In this document: in pieces, positions 1 through 43,538 of the stretch
Position numbering within the stretch: position 1 is the first letter of the stretch
Layout of the letters: every line of letters starts with the position of its first letter
DNA from: Alphaproteobacteria bacterium GM202ARS2
Lineage (GTDB): Bacteria > Pseudomonadota > Alphaproteobacteria > GM7ARS4
DNA: 64,000 nt
Direction of reading: 5' to 3'
Assembly (NCBI GenBank): GCA_014323835.1
Contig: JACONH010000001.1
Span: 27,009-91,008, forward strand
Position numbers and translations under genes: made by a program
The notes under the pieces: model-generated
The model's input: the letters and a program-made list of their open reading frames with translations, nothing else
Told to the model about the DNA's origin: nothing
The model's database searches: none

Positions 1-389
1 TTAACGTTTGCTCCTGCTTGAAGCAATAGCTCAATAATTATAGCATTTTTACACCACATTGCCGCCACGTGGAGAGGTAACAAGCCAACTTCACCTTGTG
101 CGTTAACATCTGCCCCTGCTCGAATCAATGCTTTAACCACCGCAATATTTTTATTGCGAGCAACCGCTCCATGCAAAGGTGACCAGCCGTTCTCATCCCG
201 TGCGTTTATAATCGCCCCCGCCTGAATCAACTCTTTTATTGTCGCAGGATTTTCACTGTAAATCGCTGCCAAATGAAGAGGTGAATTTCCATCCTCATCT
301 CGTGCGTTCACGTCCGCTCCTTTAGTAATCTGCTCTTGTATATCCTCAGATGTTGCCCGTCTATAGAATCTTTTATTTAACAGTTCCAT
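1..389 (-). CDS. Ankyrin-repeat protein, partial. N-terminus and ATG at 389 are inside the window; the C-terminus runs off the window start.
   Basis: The reverse translation gives MELLNKRFYRRATSEDIQEQITKGADVNARDEDGNSPLHLAA followed by 33-aa ANK repeats (GxSPLHxA...GADVNA). An AGGAG ribosome-binding site sits 8 nt upstream. No stop codon occurs before position 1. Confidence 0.8.
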   Translation of the reverse strand, partial: MELLNKRFYRRATSEDIQEQITKGADVNARDEDGNSPLHLAAIYSENPATIKELIQAGAIINARDENGWSPLHGAVARNKNIAVVKALIRAGADVNAQGEVGLLPLHVAAMWCKNAIIIELLLQAGANV

Positions 390-519
390 TGGTGCGTTCT
401 CCTATTTTCAAAATCCACCCTCACCCTCGATATAGGTCATCAAAAAACCAAAACAAGACCATGAAAGCAAAAAATTATGGATTACCACACGTCATTTGTT
501 TAGGCATGGGTGCCTCAAT

Positions 520-535
520 TGTTTCACGTGAAACA
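520..535. promoter_or_regulatory. parS: Perfect consensus parS palindrome TGTTTCACGTGAAACA. It lies within AATTGTTTCACGTGAAACAATTCCTATTCGAGCA, about 130 bp upstream of the ankyrin gene.
   Basis: The 16-mer was read directly from the sequence. It is identical to the canonical ParB/Spo0J-binding parS consensus. Confidence 0.7.
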
Positions 536-564
536 ATTCCTATTCGAGCATAACCCAAAGCGTG

Positions 565-885
565 CTATCTCCCCCACACGCTCCACCAGAGGGCTACCCC
601 GCCGACAATGCCCCCCACGATACTGAGCTCTATCCCCGTCACCAGCATAACCCCCAAACAAAACGCCGGCAGCTGCTCCATGATTTTACGCCCCGACCAA
701 CCCCCCAAGCCCGCCACCATGCCATACGCAACCGATAAAAACCCCGCCACCATCGACACCGTCAACACATTGACAATCGACAACGCCACAGACGACCGCA
801 CCACCACAAAAACAACCCCCAAGACAACCGCAACCATCATGCCATAAAAAGCCCCAAAAAACGCGTTCTTTAATCCCTCAGACAT
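565..885 (-). CDS. Small hydrophobic membrane protein of 3-4 predicted TM helices. Function unknown.
   Basis: The minus-strand ORF translates to MSEGLKNAFFGAFYGMMVAVVLGVVFVVV..., which is Gly/Val/Ala-rich. The first ATG is at 885. The ORF track's start at 897 is a TTG. The gene is flanked by near-identical ~38-bp parS-containing direct repeats. Confidence 0.5.
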   Translation of the reverse strand: MSEGLKNAFFGAFYGMMVAVVLGVVFVVVRSSVALSIVNVLTVSMVAGFLSVAYGMVAGLGGWSGRKIMEQLPAFCLGVMLVTGIELSIVGGIVGGVALWWSVWGR

Positions 886-907
886 AACACCATCCAAAAA
901 AAAACAA

Positions 908-923
908 TTGTTTCTCGTGAAAC
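908..923. promoter_or_regulatory. parS: parS-like palindrome TGTTTCTCGTGAAACA with one mismatch. On the minus strand the hairpin AATTGTTTCACGAGAAACAATT is followed by a U9 run, so it may also be the intrinsic terminator of hisI.
   Basis: Read from the sequence. An A-run at 896-903 on the plus strand immediately precedes the palindrome, giving stem-loop plus U-tract on the hisI transcript strand. Confidence 0.55.
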
Positions 924-945
924 AATTCCTATTCGAGCAAACCCC

Positions 946-1347
946 TCACTTCTTACCATACAGCGTATCTGGTGCCACTTCGACCTCGTGCGTGATAACC
1001 AGCTTCCCCTCCCGCCACTCTCGATAAAAGCACGTCCGTCTGCCGGTATGACAGGCAACCCCTTTTTGCTCGACCCGCACCAGCAACGTATCGCCATCAC
1101 AATCGATAGCCATGCTCTTAAGGGTCTGCGTCTGTCCCGATGTCTCGCCCTTACGCCACAACGTCCCCCGCGAGCGCGACCAATAATGCACATCGCCACT
1201 CTGTAACGTCCGCCTAACCGCTTCCTCATTCATCCACGCCATCATCAGCACGTCCCCCCGCTTATCATCCACCGCCACCACCGCCACAAGCCCGTCGCCA
1301 TTAAAACGCACCTCCCGCACAAACACGTCTATATCCGCACCCGCCAT
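946..1347 (-). CDS. hisI: Phosphoribosyl-AMP cyclohydrolase
   Basis: The 133-aa product carries the PRA-CH family signature ...DVHYWSRSRGTLWRKGETSGQTQ...CDGDTLL... Confidence 0.85.
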   Translation of the reverse strand: MAGADIDVFVREVRFNGDGLVAVVAVDDKRGDVLMMAWMNEEAVRRTLQSGDVHYWSRSRGTLWRKGETSGQTQTLKSMAIDCDGDTLLVRVEQKGVACHTGRRTCFYREWREGKLVITHEVEVAPDTLYGKK

Positions 1348-1351
1348 AATC

Positions 1352-2434
1352 TCACCCCTTCTTATTCAACTGATAGCGCGCCCGATGCAACAACAGATGA
1401 TCACACAGCACAAGTGCCATCATCGCCTCCATCACCGGCACCGAGCGAATCCCCACACAAGGATCATGCCGTCCCGTCGTGGACACGCTCGTGTTCTCGC
1501 CCTGTTTCGTAATCGTTGGCGTCGGCGTGCGGATAGAACTCGTCGGCTTAATCGCACAGCGCATCGTTATCGGCTGACCGCTACTAATCCCCCCCAAAAT
1601 CCCCCCGGCATTATTAGACGTAAACGATACCTTCCCCTTATCGCTCCGCATCCCATCGTTATGCTCTTCGCCCTGCATCGCAACCGCACGGAACCCCGCC
1701 CCCACTTCGACTCCCTTCACCGCTGGAATACTCATCATCGCCGCCGCTAAATCCGCATCCAAACGATGATAAATCGGCTCGCCCAAACCCACAGGCACGT
1801 TATCCGCCTCCACATAAGCAAGCGCGCCCGTAGACGACCCCGCCCGCCGCAACGCATCCACCGCCTCCTCCCAACGTGGCACGCTCGCTACATCCGGACA
1901 ATGAAACGGGTTTTTGGTAACCTCATCCCAATCCCATTTGTTCTCATCGATAGCATGCCCGCCCAACTGCACCAATGCCCCCCGCACGGTTATCGGCAGA
2001 ATAATCTGGCGCGCCAAAGCCCCCGCAGCCACCCGCACTGCCGTCTCCCGAGCCGATGCCCGCCCACCGCCGCGATGATCCCGCAAGCCATACTTTGCCT
2101 GATACGTGTAATCGGCATGACCGGGACGAAAACGCTCGGTCAAGTTGCTGTAATCCTTCGACCGCACGTCCACGTTATCAATCACCAGAGACACCGGCGC
2201 GCCGGTGGTCATGCCATCAAAAACACCCGACACAATCCGCACCGCATCAGGCTCACGGCGCTGAGACGTAAACCGAGACCGCCCCGGCTTGCGTTGGTCA
2301 AGGTCACGCTGAAGCAAAGCCTCATCGACAGCAATGCCAGCAGGCACACCATCAATGACACAGCCAATGGCTTGCCCATGACTCTCGCCCCAACTCGTGA
2401 TACGAAAAAACGTCCCGAAAGTGTTCGCTGGCAT
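1352..2434 (-). CDS. aroC: Chorismate synthase
   Basis: The 360-aa product begins [29 protein letters not shown], a typical AroC N-terminus. Confidence 0.92.
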
Positions 2435-2451
2435 CGCTAGAGTTAAACAGG

Positions 2452-3264
2452 CTAAACGAGGGCAATATCCGGGGCATCAACGGCTTTCATGCCGACAACA
2501 TGATAGCCGCAATCGATGTGGTGGACTTCGCCGGTAACGCCCTTCGACAAATCACTCAGCAGATAATAACCACCCCCCGCGACATCATCGAGGGACACGT
2601 TGCGTTTCAGCGGTGCGTTGTGCTGGTTCCACTTGAGAATCAGATTCAGCCCACCAATGCCCGATGCCGCAAGCGTCTTCAAAGGCCCCGCCGACAAAGC
2701 ATTCACCCGTATGTTTTTGCCCCCCAAGTCCACCGCCAGATAGCGCACGCTCATTTCCAGAGCAGCCTTAGCAACACCCATGACGTTATAATGCGGGATG
2801 ACTTTCTCAGCCCCGTAATAGCTCAACGTCAACAACGACCCGCCTTCAGCCATCAACGGCACACAGCGGCGCGCCACCGCCGTAAACGAGTAGCAGGAAA
2901 TCAGCAAACTACGGGTGAAGTTCTCTTGCGTTGTGTCGATATAGGGCCCCCGCAGCTGGTCTTTATCCGACCAAGCCAACGAGTGCAACGCAAAATCCAG
3001 CTGCCCCCATTGCTTTTTGAGCTGGGTAAACAGCCCGTCCATCTGTGCCTCGTCTTCGACATCGCAGGGCAGAACAAGAGACGACCCGAGCTCTTGTGCG
3101 AGGGGCGCAACGCGCTTTTCTAGAGGCTCGCCCTGATACGTAAAAGCAAGCTCCGCACCCGCATGACGCAGCTTCTCGGCAATCGCCCACGCAATAGAAC
3201 GCTTGTTAACCACCCCCATGATAAGACCCTTCTTGCCCTCCATAGATAACGGATAACCAACCAT
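2452..3264 (-). CDS. fabI: Enoyl-[acyl-carrier-protein] reductase (NADH)
   Basis: [22 protein letters not shown] aligns to E. coli FabI [21 protein letters not shown]. The [24 protein letters not shown] motif is present. The start is chosen at the Met with a GGGAG ribosome-binding site. Alternative in-frame Mets lie at 3243 and 3303. Confidence 0.88.
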
Positions 3265-3360
3265 AGAACCGTTGAACTCCCGATAAAAAATAAAATAGAA
3301 CAAGCCCCATACAAAGCAATTACGAAGGCTTTGTCAAATTATGCGTCAATGACACGCTAC

Positions 3361-3549
3361 AATGTTTCGCGCGAAACATTTTGAGGAATTGTTTCCCGTG
3401 AAACATTATTTTTTTTGCTGAAATTGTTTCCCGTGAAACATTATTTTTTTTGCTGAAATTGTTTCTCGTGAAACATTATTTTTTTTTGCTGAAATTGTTT
3501 CCCGTGAAACATTATTTTTTTTTGCTGAAATTGTTTCTCGTGAAACAAT
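3361..3549. repeat. parS: Tandem array of parS-like palindromes. One degenerate copy TGTTTCGCGCGAAACA lies at ~3363. Five copies follow at cores ~3390, 3425, 3460, 3496 and 3532, phased every 35-36 bp, each followed by ATTATTTTTTTTTGCTGAA.
   Basis: The units AATTGTTTC(C/T)CGTGAAACATTATTTTTTTTTGCTGA were read directly. Each core has one mismatch to the consensus TGTTTCACGTGAAACA. The array lies 100-285 bp upstream of the fabI start. Confidence 0.75.
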
Positions 3550-3561
3550 TCCTATTTTTAC

Positions 3562-4158
3562 TTATAAGCGTCCTCGCACGCTGACTTCGTACCAAATAGG
3601 GCTGTGGCGGTGGCGACAAGCCGACACAAGGCGTTTTTTGCCCCCGTGACGTTTTTTGAATCGGATGATCTCGCGGAATTGGCGACAGCGATAGCCGTGT
3701 TTCACCCGTAGACGTTTGATGGGGATGATGACGCCATAGTAACCGCTGTGGCGGTTGTGCCACCGCACGTGGTGGTGCAGCGATGCCGATAAGGCTTGGT
3801 GGCGAGCGGTGGTGATAAACGAGTGGTCTTGTGGGCTGAGGGTGTTGGCTTCGGCACCGAGCCACGCACCCGCGGTTGCTCCCGCTACTATGGCGGCGGT
3901 ATTGCCTGAACCGCTGCCGATGGTGCTTCCCAGCAACGCCCCGAAGGTCGCCCCGGTCAACGCGCCAAAAAAACGACCGCTATCGAAGTAGATACGTTGA
4001 TCTTCCCGAGTCGCCAGTTCTGTTTGCGTCAAGTCTGCCCCGAGATACAGTTGTCCCTCATCGATGGTGTAAGGCACGGGCGCGGGCGCGGCTTGATAAT
4101 AGACGCACCCGCTCATAACGGCAATGACGCACGCCAAAAGAGTCACACGTAAACCCAT
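3562..4158 (-). CDS. Outer-membrane lipoprotein with a glycine zipper (17-kDa surface antigen / SlyB-like family)
   Basis: Lipoprotein signal MGLRVTLLACVIAVMSGC with lipobox. Glycine-zipper GALTGATFGALLGSTIGSGSGNTAAIVAGATAGAWLG. Basic C-terminal tail. The start is chosen from the ORF track frame; longer N-terminal Mets at 4188-4203 are possible. Confidence 0.65.
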   Translation of the reverse strand: MGLRVTLLACVIAVMSGCVYYQAAPAPVPYTIDEGQLYLGADLTQTELATREDQRIYFDSGRFFGALTGATFGALLGSTIGSGSGNTAAIVAGATAGAWLGAEANTLSPQDHSFITTARHQALSASLHHHVRWHNRHSGYYGVIIPIKRLRVKHGYRCRQFREIIRFKKRHGGKKRLVSACRHRHSPIWYEVSVRGRL

Positions 4159-4244
4159 ATTTCCCACCACATTTCTATGAACAATCATCATCCCGCACGA
4201 CACTCAAAGAGACACATGTTAACCCTTACTATATAGAAGCGATT

Positions 4245-6056
4245 ATGCCCATTTCTAGTAATATGAGCACAGTGTTGCTGGCTCTGCGCATATCCCATAA
4301 AGAGAGGGATGTGCGTTTTCAACAAACCCAACTGGTGCGCAACACGGGCAATACGTCTGCTTCAGCGCATGTGTCTCGGGGTAACTGGCAGACAGTGCCC
4401 GAGAGTCGCAAGACCTTGCATGATCACTTTATGGCGCATGTGACCCATCAAGCCACCCATGCGATAGAACACAATAACGGGCATATACCGAGGAAAGTTG
4501 TTAAACGCTATCGCACGTTGCTCCGTGATATCGAGGCGGTCAATCATCCCCGTTTACGCAACAAGCCCCTGAAAGGGCGCGCCATACGTAAGCTGGCGAC
4601 TCGCTTGGTGGATGTGACCTCACAGGTGACATACTTTAACGGTAAAGGCAGGGATGCAGCAGGCGCGACAGGTGCGGGCTTGGATCGTGGCTCTGTTTTG
4701 TATGATGCGGTTGTCCACGATAGCAAGGGGCAGCTGACTCCTGTGCGCACGCCTTTGTTGCATCGGGCTTTCAAGCGTATTGCCTTGCGGTTTCAGTCGG
4801 GACGAGAGCATTATGCTAGGCGTGCCGCCGCGCAGTTTGCTCGTTCTCTTATCAACAGATACGGGCAGAGTGCCGCCTTGAGTGCCTTCGAGAAACAGGG
4901 GCTTGCCATACAGACGTATCTTGCTGAACTGGGCACCCGCAACCCATCGGTGCGTCTCTTATCAACGGACGATGTCCAAGCCATCGAGTCGCATATTGCC
5001 AAACCCTATCAAGACTCGAAGCGTTTGAGTCAACAAACCGACCAGCTGGCAAAAGAGTATGCTCTGGACGGAGACAAAGGCAAAATGATCTTTTCGCAGC
5101 TGGCATCAGTGGAGCAAGGAGCCTTATACAATCGTAATCGTAGGCAGTTGTTTTCTATTCGTTTTCGCACGATGCTCGAGGTTGCCATCGGCGACAAGGC
5201 TGAGCCCATCAGCAAACAAGAGGTAGAAAAAATCGCCCTCGAGACATGGCAGGCTCTTGCGGCAACGACCGATGAGGATGCCGCACGCCTCGCCAAAAAT
5301 GACGAAGACAGAAACAATGCTCTGTGGCAGCATCAGCAACTGCTCGCCTATGGACAAATTAACGAAAGCTTAGCCCACTTGGCTACGTTCAATACCTTGG
5401 TTAGCCAGCTGCTGAAAGAAGACCCGATTGTTGGCATAAAAAACGTAAGAAACGTGAGTGCATCACACGTATCTGTTCTTGCTGATGTTGCCCGCCGTCC
5501 TCTCAGGAGTCTCGATGCGACACAAGCAGAAAAGACTGCTCTCGAGCTGGCGGGCAACGCCATGAAAGGGTGGGGGATTGCTGTTGGTATTCTTTATGCC
5601 GATGCGGGCAATGCGCTTGTCCCGCACTCGAGTCGTCCTTCTTCTCTGTTTTTTCCCTATCCCGCCGAGCACAGCTACGATGACCTTCATAACGAGCATG
5701 ATAAACAGCAGTTCTTGCAGGCACAGGATGACTACTGGGAGCCAAAAAGTAGACTCGTCATGCAAAACGAGTTGTCCTTTTATCGTCTGACCGATGATAT
5801 GCGTGTCGCGGGCTCGGATACGGCGCGGCGCAACGGCGAAAGCATGAACACCGCCTTCAGAAACGCTATGGAAGCAGGAAGACGCCTACGAGAAAACATC
5901 GCAGGTGACATACAACAGAGTGACTCGCCCCATAATGCTATCACGGAACTTGCCCGCCAAGCCTCACACTACAGTGGCTTGTCAGCGACACAACAACGGG
6001 AAATCATGGATACCATCGCACGGGGCGTCGATGCTGCCGATGAAAAGACGTCTTGA
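4245..6056 (+). CDS. Large hypothetical protein of 603 aa with no recognisable domain. Orphan or possible secreted effector.
   Basis: Long uninterrupted ORF with coding-like composition. No signal peptide or TM helix. No motif I can assign from memory. Confidence 0.55.
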
Positions 6057-6120
6057 CCGTGCGCGCTTTTTTGCGTTTATAGAAAGGAGGGGGCACATAA
6101 ACATAACGGAGCATGAACCG

Positions 6121-6285
6121 ATGAAAAAATATATCTGTAAAGTTTGCGGACATATCTATGACCCCGAAGAAGGCGACCCTGACGGGGGAATACCGCCGGG
6201 CACTGCCTTCGAGGATATCCCCGACGACTGGGAGTGTCCCGAATGTGGAGTCACGAAAGACGACTTCGAGCCCTTAGAGGAGTAA
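6121..6285 (+). CDS. rub: Rubredoxin
   Basis: [54 protein letters not shown]. Two CxxCG motifs. Matches the canonical 54-aa rubredoxin. GGAG sits upstream. Confidence 0.9.
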
Positions 6286-6420
6286 GGAGGAGTAAGGAGG
6301 AATAACCCCGCACAACAGCTTGTCAAAGAGTCCGAAACAGGCTACAGGTAGAGCGGGCAGGGACAAACAGGGAGACAACACGTTTATGCACGATGAGGCA
6401 TACATGAGGCACACAACTAT

Positions 6421-7296
6421 ATGAGCGGCACCCCCCAATTCACGATGCGGCAGCTGCTGGAAGCGGGCGTTCATTTTGGTCATCGCGTTCGGCGTTGGAA
6501 TCCGCGTATGGAGCCGTATATTTACGGCAAGCGGCAGAAGACCCATATTATTGATTTGCAGAAAACTGTTACGCTGTTGCGGGACGGCTTGGAGGCTCTT
6601 CGCCAAGCAGCTGCTCGAGGACAGCGTATACTCTTTGTCGGCACAAAGCGGCGCGCCTCTGCCGTTATTACCGCAGAAGCACAGCGGTGCCGCCAGTATT
6701 ACGTCAATTATCGCTGGTTGGGCGGCATGCTAACCAACTGGGGCACGGTGTCGGCATCGATTGACCGACTGCGTGCTCTCGAAAAAGCCTTAAAAGACGA
6801 CAACGACGGCCACACCAAAAAGGAACGCTTGCGTATCGAGCGAGAACACCAAAAACTCGAGCGCGCCATCGGCGGCATCAAAGATATGGGCAATCTGCCC
6901 GCTATTCTCTTCGTCATCGATACCGTCAAAGAAAACATTGCCGTGCAAGAAGCCTATAAACTCGGTATCCCCGTTGTGGCTGTCCTCGATTCCAACGCTG
7001 ACCCCACGTGCGTTACCTATCCTATCCCGGGCAACGATGATTCCCTCAAAGCCATTCGCTTGTATGCACGCCTCGCTGCCGATGCCGTCCTACAAGGCTT
7101 AGCAGAAACAGAAGCCCAACGCAGTAAAGACGAGTCGCGCTACAAAAAGAATGGCGCGGGCGATAGCACGCCCGCCGATAGCAAGAAAGCCGACAGCAAG
7201 AAGACTGATAGCAAGAAAGCGGATAGCAAGAAAACGGATAGCAAGAAAGCCGACAGCAAGTCTGCTGACGGCAAGAAGGCAAAGGGGGACTCATGA
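6421..7296 (+). CDS. rpsB: 30S ribosomal protein S2 with a ~45-aa Lys/Asp/Ser-rich C-terminal repeat extension
   Basis: [38 protein letters not shown]... is a canonical S2. The tail is [40 protein letters not shown]. Confidence 0.95.
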
Positions 7297-8171
7297 CGTC
7301 TCCTTCGATAGAGCAGATTAAGGCTTTGCGGGACAAGACGGGTGCGGGCATGATGGATTGCAAGGCAGCCTTGCAGGAGAGCGGCGGCGATAGGGGCAAG
7401 GCCGAGGATTGGTTGCGTAAGAAGGGCATTGCTAAAGCATCGCAAAAGTCCGAGCGTGCCACCGGCGAGGGCATCATTGCTGTTGCCCTCGAGCCGTCTC
7501 AGGCGGGCGTCATGATTGAAATTAATACCGAGACCGATTTTGTTGCTCGTAATGAATTGTTGCAGGAATTTGCTCGTTCCTGTGCGTCTCTTGCTTTGCG
7601 TGAGCGATGCGGCGACAAGGAGGCTCTGTTGGCTTTGCCCTATGGCACGGGTGATAGCAAAAAGTCGGTGCAGGTGGCTTTGACCGATTTGATTGCATCG
7701 GTGGGTGAAAACTTGGTGTTACAGCGGGTCGTCTTGCTGGAGGCAGGCGAGGGGACGTTGGTGTCTTATGTCCATAATGCTTACCAAGACAATATTGGGC
7801 GTATTGGGGTGATGTTGACGTTACGGGGGGAGGGGCAGAGCAATGGTGATTTGGGTAAGCAGTTGGCGATGCACGTAGCAGCCATGGCACCGTTGGCTTT
7901 GTCGGCGGAAGCGGTGCCGAAGGCGTGGGAGCAACGAGAACGAGACATTATTCTGGCTCAGGAGGACTTAAAGGATAAGCCTGCTGACATTGCCGAAAAA
8001 ATGGCGGAGGGGCGTTTGCGTAAACGTTATCAGGAGGTGGTTCTTCTCGACCAGCTGTGGGTGTTGGACGGCAAGACCCGTATGCGTGATGTGCTGGCTC
8101 AGCATGGCGCGGAGATTGTGTCTTATGTGCGTTTTGCCCTCGGAGAGAGCACAGGCGACACTGATGGCTAA
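7293..8171 (+). CDS. tsf: Elongation factor Ts
   Basis: [25 protein letters not shown]...[20 protein letters not shown] is a canonical EF-Ts N-terminus. The gene overlaps the rpsB stop (ATGA). Confidence 0.95.
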
Positions 8172-8935: not shown

Positions 8936-9490
8936 ATGATGGACTTTTCTGATGCTGAGAGTCGTATGAAAAAGACGCTGGAGGTGATGCACGGGGCTTT
9001 TGCGGGTATTCGAACCGGCAGGGCAACACCCAGCCTGTTGGAGCCGGTCAAGGTGGATGCTTACGAGCAAAAAATGCCCCTCAATCAGTTAGCGAGCATA
9101 TCGGTGGCAGAAGCCCGCACCCTGACGGTGCAAGTGTGGGACGCAGCGATGGTAGCGAGTGTCGAAAAGGCACTACGAGAGTCCGAGTTGGGCTTGAATC
9201 CGATGACGGACGGGCAGATGATACGCCTGACGTTGCCGGAGTTATCGCAGGAGAGGCGGGTTGAGCTCAGTCGTCTCGCGGCGAAATATGCCGAGCAAGC
9301 ACGGGTGTCGATACGCAATGTGCGGAGGGATGCTCTCGATAAGCTGAAAAAGCAGGAAAAGGACGGCGACATATCAAAAGACGATGCCCACCAAGGTTCC
9401 GAGCAGATGCAAAAGATGACGGATACGTATATTCAGCAAATCAACGAGTCTTTGACGCGCAAGGAACAAGACATTACGAATCCGCAGTAG
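8936..9490 (+). CDS. frr: Ribosome recycling factor
   Basis: The 184-aa product has the RRF family pattern: ...MKKTLEVMHGAFAGIRTGRATPSLLEPVKVDAYEQKMPLNQLASI... Confidence 0.93.
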   Translation: MMDFSDAESRMKKTLEVMHGAFAGIRTGRATPSLLEPVKVDAYEQKMPLNQLASISVAEARTLTVQVWDAAMVASVEKALRESELGLNPMTDGQMIRLTLPELSQERRVELSRLAAKYAEQARVSIRNVRRDALDKLKKQEKDGDISKDDAHQGSEQMQKMTDTYIQQINESLTRKEQDITNPQ

Positions 9491-28247: not shown

Positions 28248-28262
28248 ATTTTGGCATTTGCT

Positions 28263-35928: not shown

Positions 35929-37551
35929 TCAAAGTAACAGGCTATGGTCTAAACAGGCACGGATATAGTCAACGAAGAGCGGATGCGGGTCAAGCGGACG
36001 AGATTTAATCTCGGGATGAAACTGCACGCCAATGAACCACGGATGAGATGGCACCTCAACAATTTCGGGCAACTGCCCGTCTGGCGACAAGCCCGACATA
36101 ATCATGCCTGCTCCTTGTAACTGCTGTTGATAGCGGATGTTGACTTCATAGCGGTGACGGTGGCGTTCACTGATAGCCTCTTGTCCGTAGATTCGATAAG
36201 CTTGGCTGTCTTTGCTGAGGCGGCAGGGATACGCGCCCAGACGCATAGTGCCGCCCATCTGCCCATTTTTGTGGGCTTTGATGGCTTTGCCTTGGCTATC
36301 TGTCCACTCGTTAAGCAAGCCAATGACGGGATTTGTGCATGTTTCCAATTCGCTCGAGCCAGCATTGGGGATTTTTGCTACGTTCTGGGCGAATTCCACC
36401 ACCGCCATTTGCATGCCGAAGCAGATACCGAGATAGGGAATAGCGTGCTCACGGGCATAACGTGCGGCAATCATTTTTCCTTGTGTGCCGCGTTCGCCAA
36501 AACCGCCGGGGACGAGGATGCCACTGATACCATCGAAGAAGGACGCATGTTCCGTGCTGGTTTCGATGTTTTCGGCATCAACCCATTTAATGTCCACCGC
36601 ACTGTTCATCGCACAAGCACCATGGGTCAAGGCTTCCGCCAGCGACTTATACGAGTCTACGAGGTGCGTGTACTTACCAATAACCGCAATAGAGACGTTT
36701 TTTTCGGGATAATGCAACCGACGGTGTAAGGCTTGCCAAGGCTTCAAGTCTATGGCTTTTTTTGTCTGCCAGCCGAGACGCTTGCCGATGACCGTGTTGA
36801 GCCCTTGCTCGTTATAGCTGAGGGGCACATCGTAGATGCTCTTCATGTCTTGGGCAGCGATGACGTGGTGGGCGGGAATGTTACAAAACAAGGCTATCTT
36901 TTGGCGGGCTTCATCGCTGAGTTGTTGCTCTTTATCGATACGGCAGAGAAGAATATCGGGCTGAATACCGACACTCTGTAGGTCTTTGACGGAATGTTGT
37001 GTCGGCTTGGTCTTGAGTTCACCCGCCGCATCGAGCCAAGGCAACAGCGTCAAGTGAATAAAAAGGGTCGCGTCATGCCCCTTCTCGTTGCGTAACTGAC
37101 GGATGGCTTCGAGAAAGGGCAAACTTTCGATGTCGCCGACGGTGCCGCCAATCTCACAGATAATAAAGTCGTAGGTTTCGTGGTCTCGTGTGATGAATTC
37201 TTTGATTCTGTCGGTGACGTGGGGGATGACTTGCACGGTGGCACCGAGATAGTCGCCTCGCCGCTCTTTTTCGAGCAGCTGGGCGTAAACTTGCCCTGCG
37301 GTGATGTTGTCTTTTTTGCTGAAGGATATGCCGGTGAATCGCTCGTAATGGCCGAGGTCGAGGTCTGTTTCTGCGCCATCATCGGTAATAAAGACTTCGC
37401 CATGCTGTATCGGGCTCATGGTGCCGGGGTCGATGTTCAAATAGGGGTCGAGCTTACGGAGGGTAATTTTGGCGCCGCCTGCCTGCAGGAGAGCCCCAAT
37501 CGCCGCGGCACACACACCCTTGCCGAGAGATGAAACAACGCCCCCGGTCAC
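35929..37551 (-). CDS. pyrG: CTP synthase
   Basis: [15 protein letters not shown]-terminus and a GATase domain ...[14 protein letters not shown]. Confidence 0.96.
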
Positions 37552-38071: not shown

Positions 38072-38359
38072 TCAAGTCGAGAGCTGTTTGCCCGTCATTT
38101 GTTTTTTCTGGAATGAACGTATTTCCTCCAGCTTGTCGGATACGCCATCTTTGATATCAACACTGCACGTTGCGTTGACGTCTGCCCCCGCTTGAACCAA
38201 TACATCAATCACGGAAAGATTTTTGTTGAATAACACAGCATAATGCAAGGGTGTCGCATCGTACTCATCGCGTGCATTGACATCTTCTCCAGCATCGAGA
38301 CGCTTTTTGACATCCTCAGGGGTTGCCCGTTTCATGAACTCTTTATCTAATAACTGCAT
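38072..38359 (-). CDS. Small ankyrin-repeat protein, a paralogue
   Basis: MQLLDKEFMKRATPEDVKKRLDAGEDVNARDEYDATPLHYAVLFNKNLSVIDVLVQAGADVNA shares its N-terminal 17 aa almost exactly with the 27655-27933 gene. Confidence 0.8.
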   Translation of the reverse strand: MQLLDKEFMKRATPEDVKKRLDAGEDVNARDEYDATPLHYAVLFNKNLSVIDVLVQAGADVNATCSVDIKDGVSDKLEEIRSFQKKQMTGKQLST

Positions 38360-38444
38360 GGCGTCCGCTCTCTTTTAAGCCTCATACCCCCGCACCTACG
38401 GTATAAATAAGCCAATAAAAAAAGCAAAGCAAGGCAATAAATGA

Positions 38445-38460
38445 AAAGAGCAATTGTTTC
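38445..38460. promoter_or_regulatory. parS: parS-like palindrome TGTTTCCCGTGAAACA with one mismatch, within CAATTGTTTCCCGTGAAACAATTG. It lies ~86 bp upstream of the ankyrin start.
   Basis: Read directly from the sequence. Confidence 0.65.
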
Positions 38461-38516
38461 CCGTGAAACAATTGCGCGCACACACAAAAAAGCGCGCCCA
38501 TCAAGCCAGCATACAA

Positions 38517-39572
38517 TCAGTTATTTTTGCCTTTATTCGTGGGTGGCTTGAACCTCTCACCAATACGTGGGCTTCCAACAAGGGGAGGAGCATCAGGCGG
38601 TCCACCACCAGGCAGGCTATCAGCAAGTAAGCCACGAACAGGTTGGGTCGAGCCACCTCTCAGTTGGGTAGCAATAAGGTCACCAGCAAGTGGGCTACCC
38701 GCAGCCGCAGGAAGGCTATCAGCAAGTAAACCACGAACAAGTTGGGTCGAGCCACCACTCAGTTGGGTATCAATGGTTGGGTCATCAAGAGGGCTATCAT
38801 AAACAGGTGTTTTGTTATCGGCACTCATGATTAAGTCAAGTGTAAGCAAGCAGTTTCTCTTGCTGGCATAGCCCTCGCTATGGACGATGACGGTGTTGCT
38901 CTTTTCATCTATTAAATCCCAACACCACTTACCCGAAATTTTAGGATAAACATCAAAAAACGTTCCAGGAGCAGATGCTTTTTTATCGCCGCTTATCAAC
39001 GATTGAAGACCCCGTGCGTGGCTTTCATCCTCATGAACAGGCGCACTTTGATTGGCATCGGTCACTAAGTCAAGAATTTGCAAGCAGTGCTCCTTATCTT
39101 TATACCCCCATTTGCTATTGGCAATGGCTTTACCTTGATCCGACATAAGTTTCCAGCGCCACTTTTTATCTGAATCTTGATACAGGTCAAAATACAAGCC
39201 CGCTCCCTCTGTCCCCGTCTTTTTTTTGCCACTTTCACGAAGAGGTGTTTTGTAACTGGTGTACTTCACGAATTTAATAGCATCAAAGCAGTCTTGCTTA
39301 TCCGTATACCCCTCGCCACGGGCAACAATAGCGCGATTAGCGTTTTTCAAGTCCCACTGCCACTTCCCTGCCTCTTCATAAACGAAAAAATAGACGCTCG
39401 TTTCTCTCGCACGAATAATTGTGCCGTCATGGGTATCCTGCACCAGTTGAACAGCACCCCGACACGCTTGCTCGCTTGTATAGCCCTCCTTATGGGCAAT
39501 CATTTCGCGGTCTTTATCGTGCAAGTCCCAACGCCACGCACCAAAAGAAGTAGAATAAACAGTAAAAAACAT
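38517..39572 (-). CDS. Protein with four tandem YegP/DUF1508 (UPF0339) domains and a C-terminal tandem 24-aa repeat
   Basis: Four copies of the G.W.W.L........A.SEGY.SK..C pattern (AWRWDLHDKDREMIAHKEGYTSEQACRGAV; KWQWDLKNANRAIVARGEGYTDKQDCFDAI; KWRWKLMSDQGKAIANSKWGYKDKEHCLQI; KWCWDLIDEKSNTVIVHSEGYASKRNCLLT). The C-terminus has QLSGGSTQLVRGLLADSLPAAAGSPLAGDLIAT / QLRGGSTQPVRGLLADSLPGG. Start chosen at the Met with an AGGAG ribosome-binding site (MFFTVYSTSFGAWRW...). The track ORF begins 70 codons upstream. Confidence 0.7.
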   Translation of the reverse strand: MFFTVYSTSFGAWRWDLHDKDREMIAHKEGYTSEQACRGAVQLVQDTHDGTIIRARETSVYFFVYEEAGKWQWDLKNANRAIVARGEGYTDKQDCFDAIKFVKYTSYKTPLRESGKKKTGTEGAGLYFDLYQDSDKKWRWKLMSDQGKAIANSKWGYKDKEHCLQILDLVTDANQSAPVHEDESHARGLQSLISGDKKASAPGTFFDVYPKISGKWCWDLIDEKSNTVIVHSEGYASKRNCLLTLDLIMSADNKTPVYDSPLDDPTIDTQLSGGSTQLVRGLLADSLPAAAGSPLAGDLIATQLRGGSTQPVRGLLADSLPGGGPPDAPPLVGSPRIGERFKPPTNKGKNN

Positions 39573-39648
39573 GATGACTCCTGTCTGTAAAAGATAAAGT
39601 TTAATACTTAAAGTATTACAACCTAAATAAAGCGGAGTCAAGAAAAAT

Positions 39649-40374
39649 TTATGGGTTACAGCAGGCTTGGGCAATGGCGTAAAAACGCTGTGCATCGAGG
39701 GATTGTCCGCCCACCAGCAAGCCGCGATAGATGCCGGAGGCGACAAAATCACGAGCATTTTTGTCTGTGACCGACCCGCCATACAAAAAAGTCGCTGGTT
39801 GATGGTTCAGGTGTGCGTTGACGGCTTGTGCTACGTCATCGATGTCTTGTGGTTGTGGCGTTGTGCCACTGCCGATAGCCCAAATGGGCTCGTAAGCCAT
39901 GACGTAGTTACCAGAGATGCCGTGAGTCGATTCCTGTGCTTGTTGTTTGAGGGCATCGAGGGCATGTCCGCTGTCTCTTTGTTTGCGTGTTTCGCCGATA
40001 CAGATAATCGGGCATAAGCCCTGTTTTTGTGCTTGCTGTGCTTTGCGAGCCACCTGTTCGTTGTTTTCGTGGTGAGCGGCGCGCCGTTCGCTATGTCCCA
40101 GCACGACAAAGCGACAATCCAAGTCCGCCAGTAACATCGCACTGGTATCGCCGGTATAAGCCCCCTCTTCCTCTGGGTGACAATCCTGTCCGCCCAGGGC
40201 GATGGTCTCATCGCAAAACGGACGCAAAATCTCGAGCAACGCAAAAGGCGGGCATAACACCATACGAGCAGCGGTCGGTTGTTGCTTGTGTAAATGCGTG
40301 AGCTGGCACACCCACTCGATGGCTTGGGCGCGGTTTTTGTGCATCTTCCAGTTGGCAACAATAAGCGGGCGCAT
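39649..40374 (-). CDS. tpiA: Triosephosphate isomerase
   Basis: MRPLIVANWKMHKN...QDCHPEEEGAYTGDTSA...GHSERR...IICIGE is a canonical TIM. Confidence 0.95.
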   Translation of the reverse strand: MRPLIVANWKMHKNRAQAIEWVCQLTHLHKQQPTAARMVLCPPFALLEILRPFCDETIALGGQDCHPEEEGAYTGDTSAMLLADLDCRFVVLGHSERRAAHHENNEQVARKAQQAQKQGLCPIICIGETRKQRDSGHALDALKQQAQESTHGISGNYVMAYEPIWAIGSGTTPQPQDIDDVAQAVNAHLNHQPATFLYGGSVTDKNARDFVASGIYRGLLVGGQSLDAQRFYAIAQACCNP

Positions 40375-42906: not shown

Positions 42907-43538
42907 GACGGGGTCTCCTTTGAGGGGGGGGAGGGGGGCGAGGAGGGGGGGGGAGTCGGGTCGGCGACGGGAGCTTGGGCCTCAAACGGAAGCTCGTTGT
43001 CATCAGCAGGTTGATGCGATAGGGACATCAACGTTGCTAACTCATCGAAGCCGGGTAAATCTCTTGGTGAGCCCAGACCAAAGTGGTCGAGAAAGGACGT
43101 TGTGGTGACGAACATCAGAGGACGACCGGGGGTATTGCGTCGTCCTTTTGCGGTCATCCAGCCGAGCTTCATCAGCAGCTCTAAGGTATGGGGTGCGACG
43201 CGGGTGCCGCGGATGGCTTCGATATCGTGCCGAGTCACCGGTTGGTGATAGGCACAGATAGCCAGAGTCTCAAGGGCTGCCTTTGATAGTCCACGTTTGG
43301 GCTTGCGTAGAGCCGTCAAGGAACAAGACAGTTCTGTTGGCGTGCGCATCGCCCACTTATTGCCTTCGACGCACACCAGACGGATACCGCGGTCTTTGTA
43401 GTGTTCTTCTAGGGTTGCGAGGAGTTTGCGGACATCCGCGCTGCCGAGCCATTGTTGCAACGTGGATTCGGCAATCGGCGTGTCGTTGGCAAAAAGAATC
43501 GCTTCTAACTTCTGTAGGGGAGAAAACTGGGTCGTCAT
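42903..43538 (-). CDS. scpB: Segregation and condensation protein B, with a Pro/Ser-rich C-terminal tail
   Basis: ScpB winged-helix pattern ...LEAILFANDTPIAESTLQQ...LVCVEGNKWAMRT... The tail is ...VADPTPPPSSPPSPPSKETPS and is encoded across poly-G/C tracts. Confidence 0.88.
   Translation of the reverse strand: MTTQFSPLQKLEAILFANDTPIAESTLQQWLGSADVRKLLATLEEHYKDRGIRLVCVEGNKWAMRTPTELSCSLTALRKPKRGLSKAALETLAICAYHQPVTRHDIEAIRGTRVAPHTLELLMKLGWMTAKGRRNTPGRPLMFVTTTSFLDHFGLGSPRDLPGFDELATLMSLSHQPADDNELPFEAQAPVADPTPPPSSPPSPPSKETPS

Follow-up and report, generated by a model that had tools for sequence, protein, structure and literature searches.

Tandem near-consensus parS sites upstream of fabI in an alphaproteobacterial metagenome contig

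The chromosomal parS sites of B. subtilis, Caulobacter and Pseudomonas share one 16-bp palindrome, tGTTtCAcGTGAAAca, and several such sites lie together in one zone. A tandem arrangement is known from the F plasmid, in which sopC consists of 12 tandem repeats of 43 bp, each with a 16-bp inverted repeat that is bound by SopB, a protein of the ParB family. The multi-site zones of chromosomes are made up mostly of dispersed single sites: seven in ~10 kb in Caulobacter, 22 in M. xanthus and about ten in C. glutamicum (PMC5815017, PMC7022226, PMC7083940). Here we describe an array of tandem parS palindromes upstream of fabI, the gene of enoyl-ACP reductase, in a 64,000-nucleotide stretch (the window) of contig JACONH010000001.1 of Alphaproteobacteria bacterium GM202ARS2. 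The array is a real, non-random tandem cluster of near-consensus parS sites, the sibling of a second array at 28 kb in the same window, and both lie within a parS-rich zone of 38 kb. From its sequence, the most likely function of the array is the nucleation of ParB as part of the chromosome's centromere, a role that we regard as probable.

Read directly, positions 3361–3555 of the window consist of five head-to-tail units of 35–36 bp (3387–3555) and one degenerate palindrome, in agreement with the original prediction, and Tandem Repeats Finder recognized 4.5 copies of a 36-bp period with 96% matches at 3387–3547 (alternatively, a two-unit period of 71 bp). The core of every unit is TGTTTC(C/T)CGTGAAACA, which agrees with the universal chromosomal parS in 15 of 16 positions and deviates from TGTTTCACGTGAAACA at position 7 alone. 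Unit 1 (3387–3421; 35 bp) is composed of AATTGTTTCCCGTGAAACATT, one A, eight T and GCTGA, with its core at 3390–3405 and C at position 7, and unit 2 (3422–3456; 35 bp; core 3425–3440) repeats it without change, including C at position 7 and the T8 tract. Units 3 (3457–3492; core 3460–3475) and 4 (3493–3528; core 3496–3511) are both 36 bp long with a T9 spacer, and have T and C at position 7, respectively. The terminal unit, AATTGTTTCTCGTGAAACAATTCCTAT (3529–3555; core 3532–3547, T at position 7), runs into ATTCCTAT without a T-run, and this right flank, ATTCCTAT(T), is common to the single sites at 520 and 909. On the fabI side, the degenerate but symmetric palindrome AATGTTTCGCGCGAAACATT (3361–3380; core 3363–3378) retains 14 of the 16 parS positions, with the changes A7G and T10C. 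Each of the five tandem cores has one central mismatch, and the degenerate copy has two (positions 7 and 10). The window corresponds to positions 9435–73434 of a 139-kb contig (Ga0189853_1000006) of JGI metagenome 3300017829. Because this source is a short-read metagenome contig, the exact copy number of the 35-bp repeat could be mis-assembled.

The array lies between fabI (2452–3264, minus strand; 270 aa; Pfam PF13561, E = 2e-86; also a gene call in the source record), which is downstream of it, and a gene for a glycine-zipper (17-kDa-antigen-like) lipoprotein (3562–4191, minus strand), whose stop codon is ~7–10 bp from the array end. It was predicted to fill this whole intergenic region. However, the region (3265–3561) has 297 bp with 32% G+C, and the array takes up 192 bp, or about 65%; the 96 bp adjoining fabI (3265–3360, minus strand) are a separate promoter-like stretch, from the array to the fabI ATG, that is kept in a close relative. 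It contains the hexamer TTGACA, the reverse complement of 3332–3337. From the conserved stretch and this hexamer, a fabI promoter seems likely to lie here, and a consensus promoter scan of the region gave no match at threshold.

A search of the window for TGTTTCACGTGAAACA, with up to three mismatches allowed, found 15 sites, all of which have two mismatches or fewer, against 0.30 expected, and none of 100 shuffled sequences reached 15. They are a perfect site at 520–535 (flanks CAAT...ATTCCTATTCGAGCA), a T7 variant at 909–924, the six in the fabI array, six at 28022–28247, and a C7 variant at 38455–38470. The perfect 16/16 sites number six, namely that at 520 and five in the 28-kb array, and together with the 15/16 cores upstream of fabI, compared against the cross-phylum consensus, they confirm that the units are parS-like, as had been proposed. 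All deviations fall on plus-strand position 7 (7 and 10 in the degenerate copy), and positions 1–6 and 11–16 are invariant in all 15 sites. The sites occupy five intergenic spots within 38 kb (520–38470). No parS site was found in the 8.6 kb to the left of the window, in its rightmost 25.5 kb or in the 7.5 kb beyond it, so that, of the ~80 kb of contig DNA examined (the window and its flanks), the sites occupy only a 38-kb part. The presence of many sites of graded quality within tens of kb (15 in 38 kb) is a feature shared with the multi-site zones of other chromosomes; the concentration of 12 of the 15 sites in two tandem arrays is not. The head-to-tail arrangement at 35–36 bp, the conserved T-run spacer and the central mismatch at the same position in all five cores of these putative sites also differ from classic parS.

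The second array (28019–28250) has five perfect TGTTTCACGTGAAACA cores and a terminal T-variant core, with periods of 38–47 bp and a spacer composed of a T-run and (G/A)CTG. A pattern spanning the spacer, GTGAAACAT-NN-T8-..CTG..-AATTGTTTC (GTGAAACATNNT8..), occurs four times in the fabI array, three times in the 28-kb array and nowhere else in the window. The unit at 28057–28095 differs from that at 3493–3528 only in core position 7 and a CGGT tail, and both arrays are closed by a common T-variant end unit, AATTGTTTCTCGTGAAACAATT. Because the spacer pattern, a near-identical unit and the terminal unit are all shared, the two arrays are paralogues rather than products of convergence, and the predicted relationship, a diverged sibling of the 28-kb array, is established. 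The spacers of the 28-kb array have since become irregular (38–47 bp). In two adjacent spacers, G7 runs are inserted (28132–28138 and 28164–28170), lengthening those units to 46–47 bp; a separate G-rich run is present at 42922–42953.

The single sites are related to the arrays through their flanks. Beyond the 16-bp core, the flank ATTCCTATT(CGAGCA) is found at 520, 909 and 3532, and in mirrored form at the left edge of the 28-kb array. Between the hisI stop and the T variant at 909–924 there are 21 bp. Read on the minus strand, this palindrome precedes ATTG and T9, so that it might also serve aroC-hisI as a weak hairpin resembling a terminator; the T-run is on the opposite strand to those of the array units. 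A small ankyrin gene (38072–38359, minus strand) has the C variant at 38455–38470 in its upstream region, 95 nt away, and is paralogous to another (27655–27933, minus strand) downstream of the 28-kb array; the products are 95 and 92 aa long, respectively. A parS palindrome lies 88–95 nt upstream of each of these two genes (the first core of the 28-kb array and site 38455), and the DNA homology of the two loci covers the gene and the region upstream of it as far as the palindrome. Because the homology runs through in this way, a module of parS, promoter region and ankyrin gene has been duplicated, and at least some of the parS sites have thus increased in number through duplication of a segment.

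Only one close relative was found, a 9-kb ENA contig (L122), the fabI of which is 91% identical. It has four palindromes (3697, 4413, 4480 and 6914), all of them TGTTTCACATGAAACA (G9A). Those at 4413 and 4480, 67 bp apart, are upstream of fabI, that at 6914 is just past the hisI stop and is orthologous to site 909 of the window, and that at 3697 lies between ankyrin genes. In the alignment, the palindrome at 3363 of the window is collinear with that at 4480 (3361–3380 against 4480–4495), and the ~96–99 nt from the palindrome to the fabI ATG, TTGACA included, are collinear in both genomes. So, in this one relative, sites occur at orthologous positions, and the predicted placement upstream of fabI is kept. 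By this comparison, the location is conserved, with a labile copy number (two in the relative versus six here) and a different central base; since positions are kept but copy number differs, and since the units are 96% alike, the expansion of the five-unit block is likely to be recent. In three of the relative's sites, the left flank is (A)TAGGAAA and the right flank starts with TTTTTG, and the full right flank of ~30 nt is common to those at 3697 and 4413. The common G9A and flanks suggest either concerted copying of units or a preferred core specific to the lineage. In the more distant relatives (L123–L125; 73% identical), no parS was recognized within 10 kb of fabI.

Tandem parS sites are not restricted to this lineage. 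In a scan of one genome for each of 185,579 species, by requiring at least three cores TGTTTCNCGNGAAACA at gaps of 10–40 bp, tandem triplets were found in the genomes of at least 120 species from many phyla. The matches listed belong to Coriobacteriia (Collinsella, which makes up the bulk), Clostridia, Bacilli, Streptomyces, Patescibacteria, Bacteroidota, delta- and gammaproteobacterial metagenome-assembled genomes (MAGs) and several Alphaproteobacteria. The longest among the matches listed have nine units, of 50 bp in a Hyphomicrobiales chromosome (OZ245032.1; complete, ~408 kb) and of 55 bp in a Bacilli MAG; a Rhodospirillales MAG among them has five units of 37–45 bp, and nearly all of the Collinsella genomes listed have an array of three 39-bp units in common. 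Among the matches listed, the units of each array are near-identical, the spacers are unrelated between lineages and in some cases G+C-rich, and the periods (30–55 bp) have no common helical phase. Perfect cores constitute 97% (399/411) of those in the matches listed, in which all-variant arrays were recognized in two Patescibacteria genomes only (G at position 7). At the motif level, a ParA-type Walker A motif, KGGxGK[ST]T, was found within 8 kb at 96 of the 120 listed loci, often only a few hundred bp away, and the ParB GERRxRA box was also seen at 21 of the listed loci; neither motif was present in the 8 kb surrounding the nine-unit array of OZ245032.1. From these loci, tandem parS is a recurrent format of the ParABS centromere, normally placed at the parAB operon. 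In a limited literature search, we did not find a discussion of natural tandem parS arrays.

The fabI array resembles these arrays in its direct repeats of core and spacer, at least three copies and highly similar units, and it differs from them in that all cores are variant, no ParA-type gene was found in the ~80 kb examined and the spacer sequence is unrelated. It is comparable to sopC as well, in that both consist of tandem direct repeats with one dimer-binding palindrome each and sopC is a centromere; however, sopC is plasmid-borne, differs in sequence, repeats every 43 bp and directly follows sopAB.

Whether ParB would accept the variant cores can be judged from sites characterized elsewhere. 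In the half-site GTTTCAC, adenine 6 is one of the two positions that distinguish parS from NBS, the binding site of Noc (PMC7383237). The changed base of the array cores is this half-site position 6 (C or T for A), in one half only, and the other half, GTGAAACA, is perfect. In the co-crystal of Caulobacter ParB with parS, G201 lacks a side chain and makes no base-specific contact to T-6 (PMC7383237), a geometry that suggests tolerance of a change at position 6; variants of this position were tested in Jalal et al. 2020, in which the values are presented as a heat-map figure. In the parS sites of Caulobacter, the GTGAAA half is constant and the other half variable, and five of the seven putative sites bind with low-nM Kd (PMC5815017). 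In P. aeruginosa, sites with one mismatch are of high affinity and are enough for segregation, and parS7–9, which have CACGAG (on the other strand, the T variant) and a further mismatch, rank as intermediate in affinity (PMC4368675). Natural variants with one intact half-site, the configuration found here, do bind ParB (PMC5815017, PMC4368675). In the other genomes scanned, a Collinsella-dominated set, variation among the additional sites close to the consensus is almost entirely limited to the outermost position and the two central positions of the half-site, and the same C7 and A9 variants occur among them. By these comparisons, the variant position is plausibly tolerated by ParB, the central mismatch probably lowers the affinity of each site, and the fabI array probably consists of weaker but functional sites for ParB loading.

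NBS itself (tATTTCCCGGGAAATa), which has A at position 1 and C at position 6 of each half-site, was considered as an identity of the palindromes; the C-variant half-site, GTTTCCC, agrees with it at the second of the two distinguishing positions (PMC7383237). It was rejected: all copies have G at position 1, and at position 6 only one half departs from parS, with T rather than C in two of the five cores. The host also excludes it, since the gene content and the nearest FabI homologues are alphaproteobacterial and Noc is confined to Firmicutes.

As a part of the centromere, the array would act in the following way. ParB dimers would bind the 16-bp palindromes, close into CTP-bound clamps and slide onto the flanking DNA, and the five intergenic spots, with their 15 sites in 38 kb, would together form a centromere or ParB-loading zone on what is presumably the chromosome of an uncultured Rhodospirillales-like alphaproteobacterium. 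Because one half-site is perfect and the other has C or T for A at position 6, the fabI array is expected to be the weaker set in comparison with the perfect cores at 28 kb, and multiplicity may partly compensate; in vitro, ParB-dependent condensation grows with parS copy number (PMC8299390). The unit of palindrome and T-run would have been duplicated by slippage or unequal exchange, with an ancestry shared with the 28-kb array.

Several observations weigh against this interpretation. A motif scan of the window detected no parA or parB, and a ParB hidden Markov model, built from ten ParBs of tandem-array loci, gave a best E-value of only 0.019 on all open-reading frames (ORFs) of the examined contig DNA and of the relative's contig; since no parAB was seen nearby, the locus contrasts with the arrays of other genomes, which are usually beside parA. 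Proximity to the origin is not established either. The GC skew is strong but patchy and erratic (-0.43 to +0.45 per kb, with one sign change at ~3.3–7.3 kb, close to the array, in positions 1–8000 and the 8.6 kb to the left; it is positive at 28–37 kb, though the genes there are on the minus strand). In the DNA examined, DnaA boxes are present in chance-level counts without enrichment, and no dnaA, gidAB or parAB was seen. In addition, all of the variation (positions 7, 9 and 7 + 10) is limited to the central four bases, the would-be loop in a hairpin, so that a repeat constrained by its hairpin would explain the pattern no less well than a ParB site. The sites also have flanks in common and belong to duplicated modules, which indicates spread by duplication and not necessarily selection. 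The authors of the P. aeruginosa study hold that an intact CACGTG core favours binding (PMC4368675), by which standard the fabI array could be poorly bound. The comparison covers ~80 kb of one genome and one 9-kb contig of a relative.

These points lead to the most serious of the alternatives, in which the array is a neutral or decaying palindromic repeat that was originally parS, has spread through duplication, slippage and gene conversion as REP or MITE elements do, and is no longer an effective ParB site. It would account for the flank ATTCCTATT(CGAGCA) common to 520, 909 and 3532 and its mirror at the edge of the 28-kb array, for the palindrome belonging to a duplicated module with a small ankyrin gene, for the departure of all five fabI array cores from the consensus at a core position, for the differing copy number in the relative, for G9A in all four of the relative's sites, which looks like concerted copying, and for variation limited to the would-be loop. 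However, positions 1–6 of both half-sites, which are the part that ParB reads, are invariant in all 15 sites; the sites keep to 38 kb of the examined DNA; and orthologous positions are kept though the relative's FabI differs by 9% in amino-acid sequence. The array unit and the flanked single unit had no match in scans of the JGI metagenome collection, scans that also missed the source contig, and a BLAST search of the array against plasmids gave marginal matches only. On balance, we think a decaying repeat unlikely. Another possibility is that the palindromes are promoter-proximal operators, bound by ParB or another helix-turn-helix dimer, that tune fabI and the ankyrin genes instead of or besides segregation. 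The distance from the palindrome to a -35-like hexamer read by hand is 25 nt for fabI (TTGACA, 3332–3337), 27 nt for fabI of the relative (TTGACA, ~4523–4528 of its contig), and 25 and 22 nt for the two ankyrin genes, ankA (TTGATT, ~27992–27997) and ankB (TTGCTT, ~38428–38433); the stretch from the palindrome to the start codon, ~90 nt in the fabI, ankA and ankB regions, is conserved; and in P. aeruginosa, ParB affects the expression of genes near parS (PMC7022226, a review). These hexamers are weak and hand-picked, and a consensus scan of the fabI and ankA regions found no promoter. The similar spacings, between ankA and ankB and between fabI of both genomes, are a consequence of common descent, the sites at 520 and 909 fall outside the pattern, five or six copies are superfluous for an operator, and the sequence is exactly that of a segregation parS. 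We consider such a role quite unlikely. Of the two base pairs that determine specificity for ParB versus Noc, one is changed in all five cores, and the fabI array might also be a functionally distinct class of site, either read by a second, diverged ParB-like protein or used as a promoter-proximal operator by ParB, an idea that we hold to be improbable.

The two remaining explanations are concerned with the shape of the DNA or with its transcript, and both seem very improbable. The original prediction saw strongly phased intrinsic curvature in the repeats, and the array might thus be a curved element whose phased T-tracts shape the region upstream of fabI. In its favour, each unit has one T8–9 tract, and the modelled local bend amounts to ~8–10 degrees per turn. 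However, when helix trajectories were modelled with two dinucleotide wedge sets (Bolshoy-Trifonov and De Santis), the ratio of end-to-end distance to contour length was 0.96–0.98 for the array, which is at or straighter than the median 216-bp window, with 62–68% of windows at least as curved. The bends of the T-tracts cancel, since one tract in each 35–36 bp (3.3–3.4 turns) places successive bends ~120–155 degrees apart. When the array unit was re-spaced to 31, 32 or 42 bp, the ratio fell to 0.74–0.89, and a control of phased A6 tracts gave 0.34–0.38. In addition, the 28-kb array has irregular periods of 38–47 bp, and the tandem parS of other taxa have 30–55 bp periods and some G+C-rich spacers. 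A curved element of phased A-tracts was therefore rejected, on the out-of-phase period and the straight trajectory in both wedge models, and the predicted curvature is not supported. The other explanation is that the array acts at the RNA level, as serial intrinsic terminators or as a structured or small RNA, and it is suggested by the hairpin followed by a T-run in every unit on the plus strand and by folding of both strands far above that of shuffled sequences (z = -6.7 and -6.8). Strong folding is, however, a trivial outcome of tandem palindromes; the T-runs follow hairpins on the plus strand only, which is antisense to the genes on either side; the stems, rich in A+T, are weak, at -4.0 to -5.9 kcal/mol; terminator scans of both arrays were without a match; and the whole window gave no Rfam match at gathering thresholds. 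With a scan without a match, weak stems and T-runs antisense to the flanking genes, the array does not qualify as a Rho-independent terminator.

The genes around the array have an alphaproteobacterial housekeeping arrangement. The minus-strand neighbours are hisI, aroC and fabI, and the plus strand carries rpsB-tsf-pyrH-frr-uppS-cdsA-dxr-rseP; metG, holB, tmk, nadA/C, eno, pyrG, secG and a ribosomal-protein operon are also present in the window. Beyond the 91% relative, the nearest homologues of FabI, in Rhodospirillaceae, Telmatospirillum and alphaproteobacterial MAGs, are ~73% identical. An ORF of 603 aa (4245–6056) adjoins the lipoprotein gene in divergent orientation and has no Pfam match. 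The CTP synthase gene pyrG (35929–37551) lies within the parS-rich zone, at a distance of ~0.9 kb from site 38455. Although ParB is a CTPase, the proximity is probably a coincidence. Near the same site, a 421-aa protein (38517–39782) has three DUF1508 repeats, with a 51-bp tandem repeat in the C-terminal part of its coding sequence (38618–38772), and rpsB contains a 15-bp coding repeat (7174–7260), which suggests a repetitive C-terminal extension. The most curved DNA predicted in the window (start ~21301) is in a stretch of low G+C content at 21300–24300 (0.415 at 21.35–22.35 kb), which is adjoined by a gene for a GTA-type holin with three transmembrane segments (22562–23038, minus strand) and a DUF4268 gene.

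The element is in keeping with the established picture of ParABS and does not overturn current understanding. What is unusual here is the all-variant composition of the array, the lack of a nearby parAB in the ~80 kb examined, and the duplication of sites together with ankyrin genes. If the fabI array were indeed a distinct class of site, the segregation machinery would be coupled to an essential gene of fatty-acid synthesis and to ankyrin genes, possibly in a host-associated alphaproteobacterium. If ParB binds the array, the two siblings, 25 kb apart, would constitute a natural experiment in which perfect cores are set against cores with a single specificity-determining base-pair change, and a comparison of the two could show how site quality trades off against multiplicity in the loading of ParB-CTP clamps.

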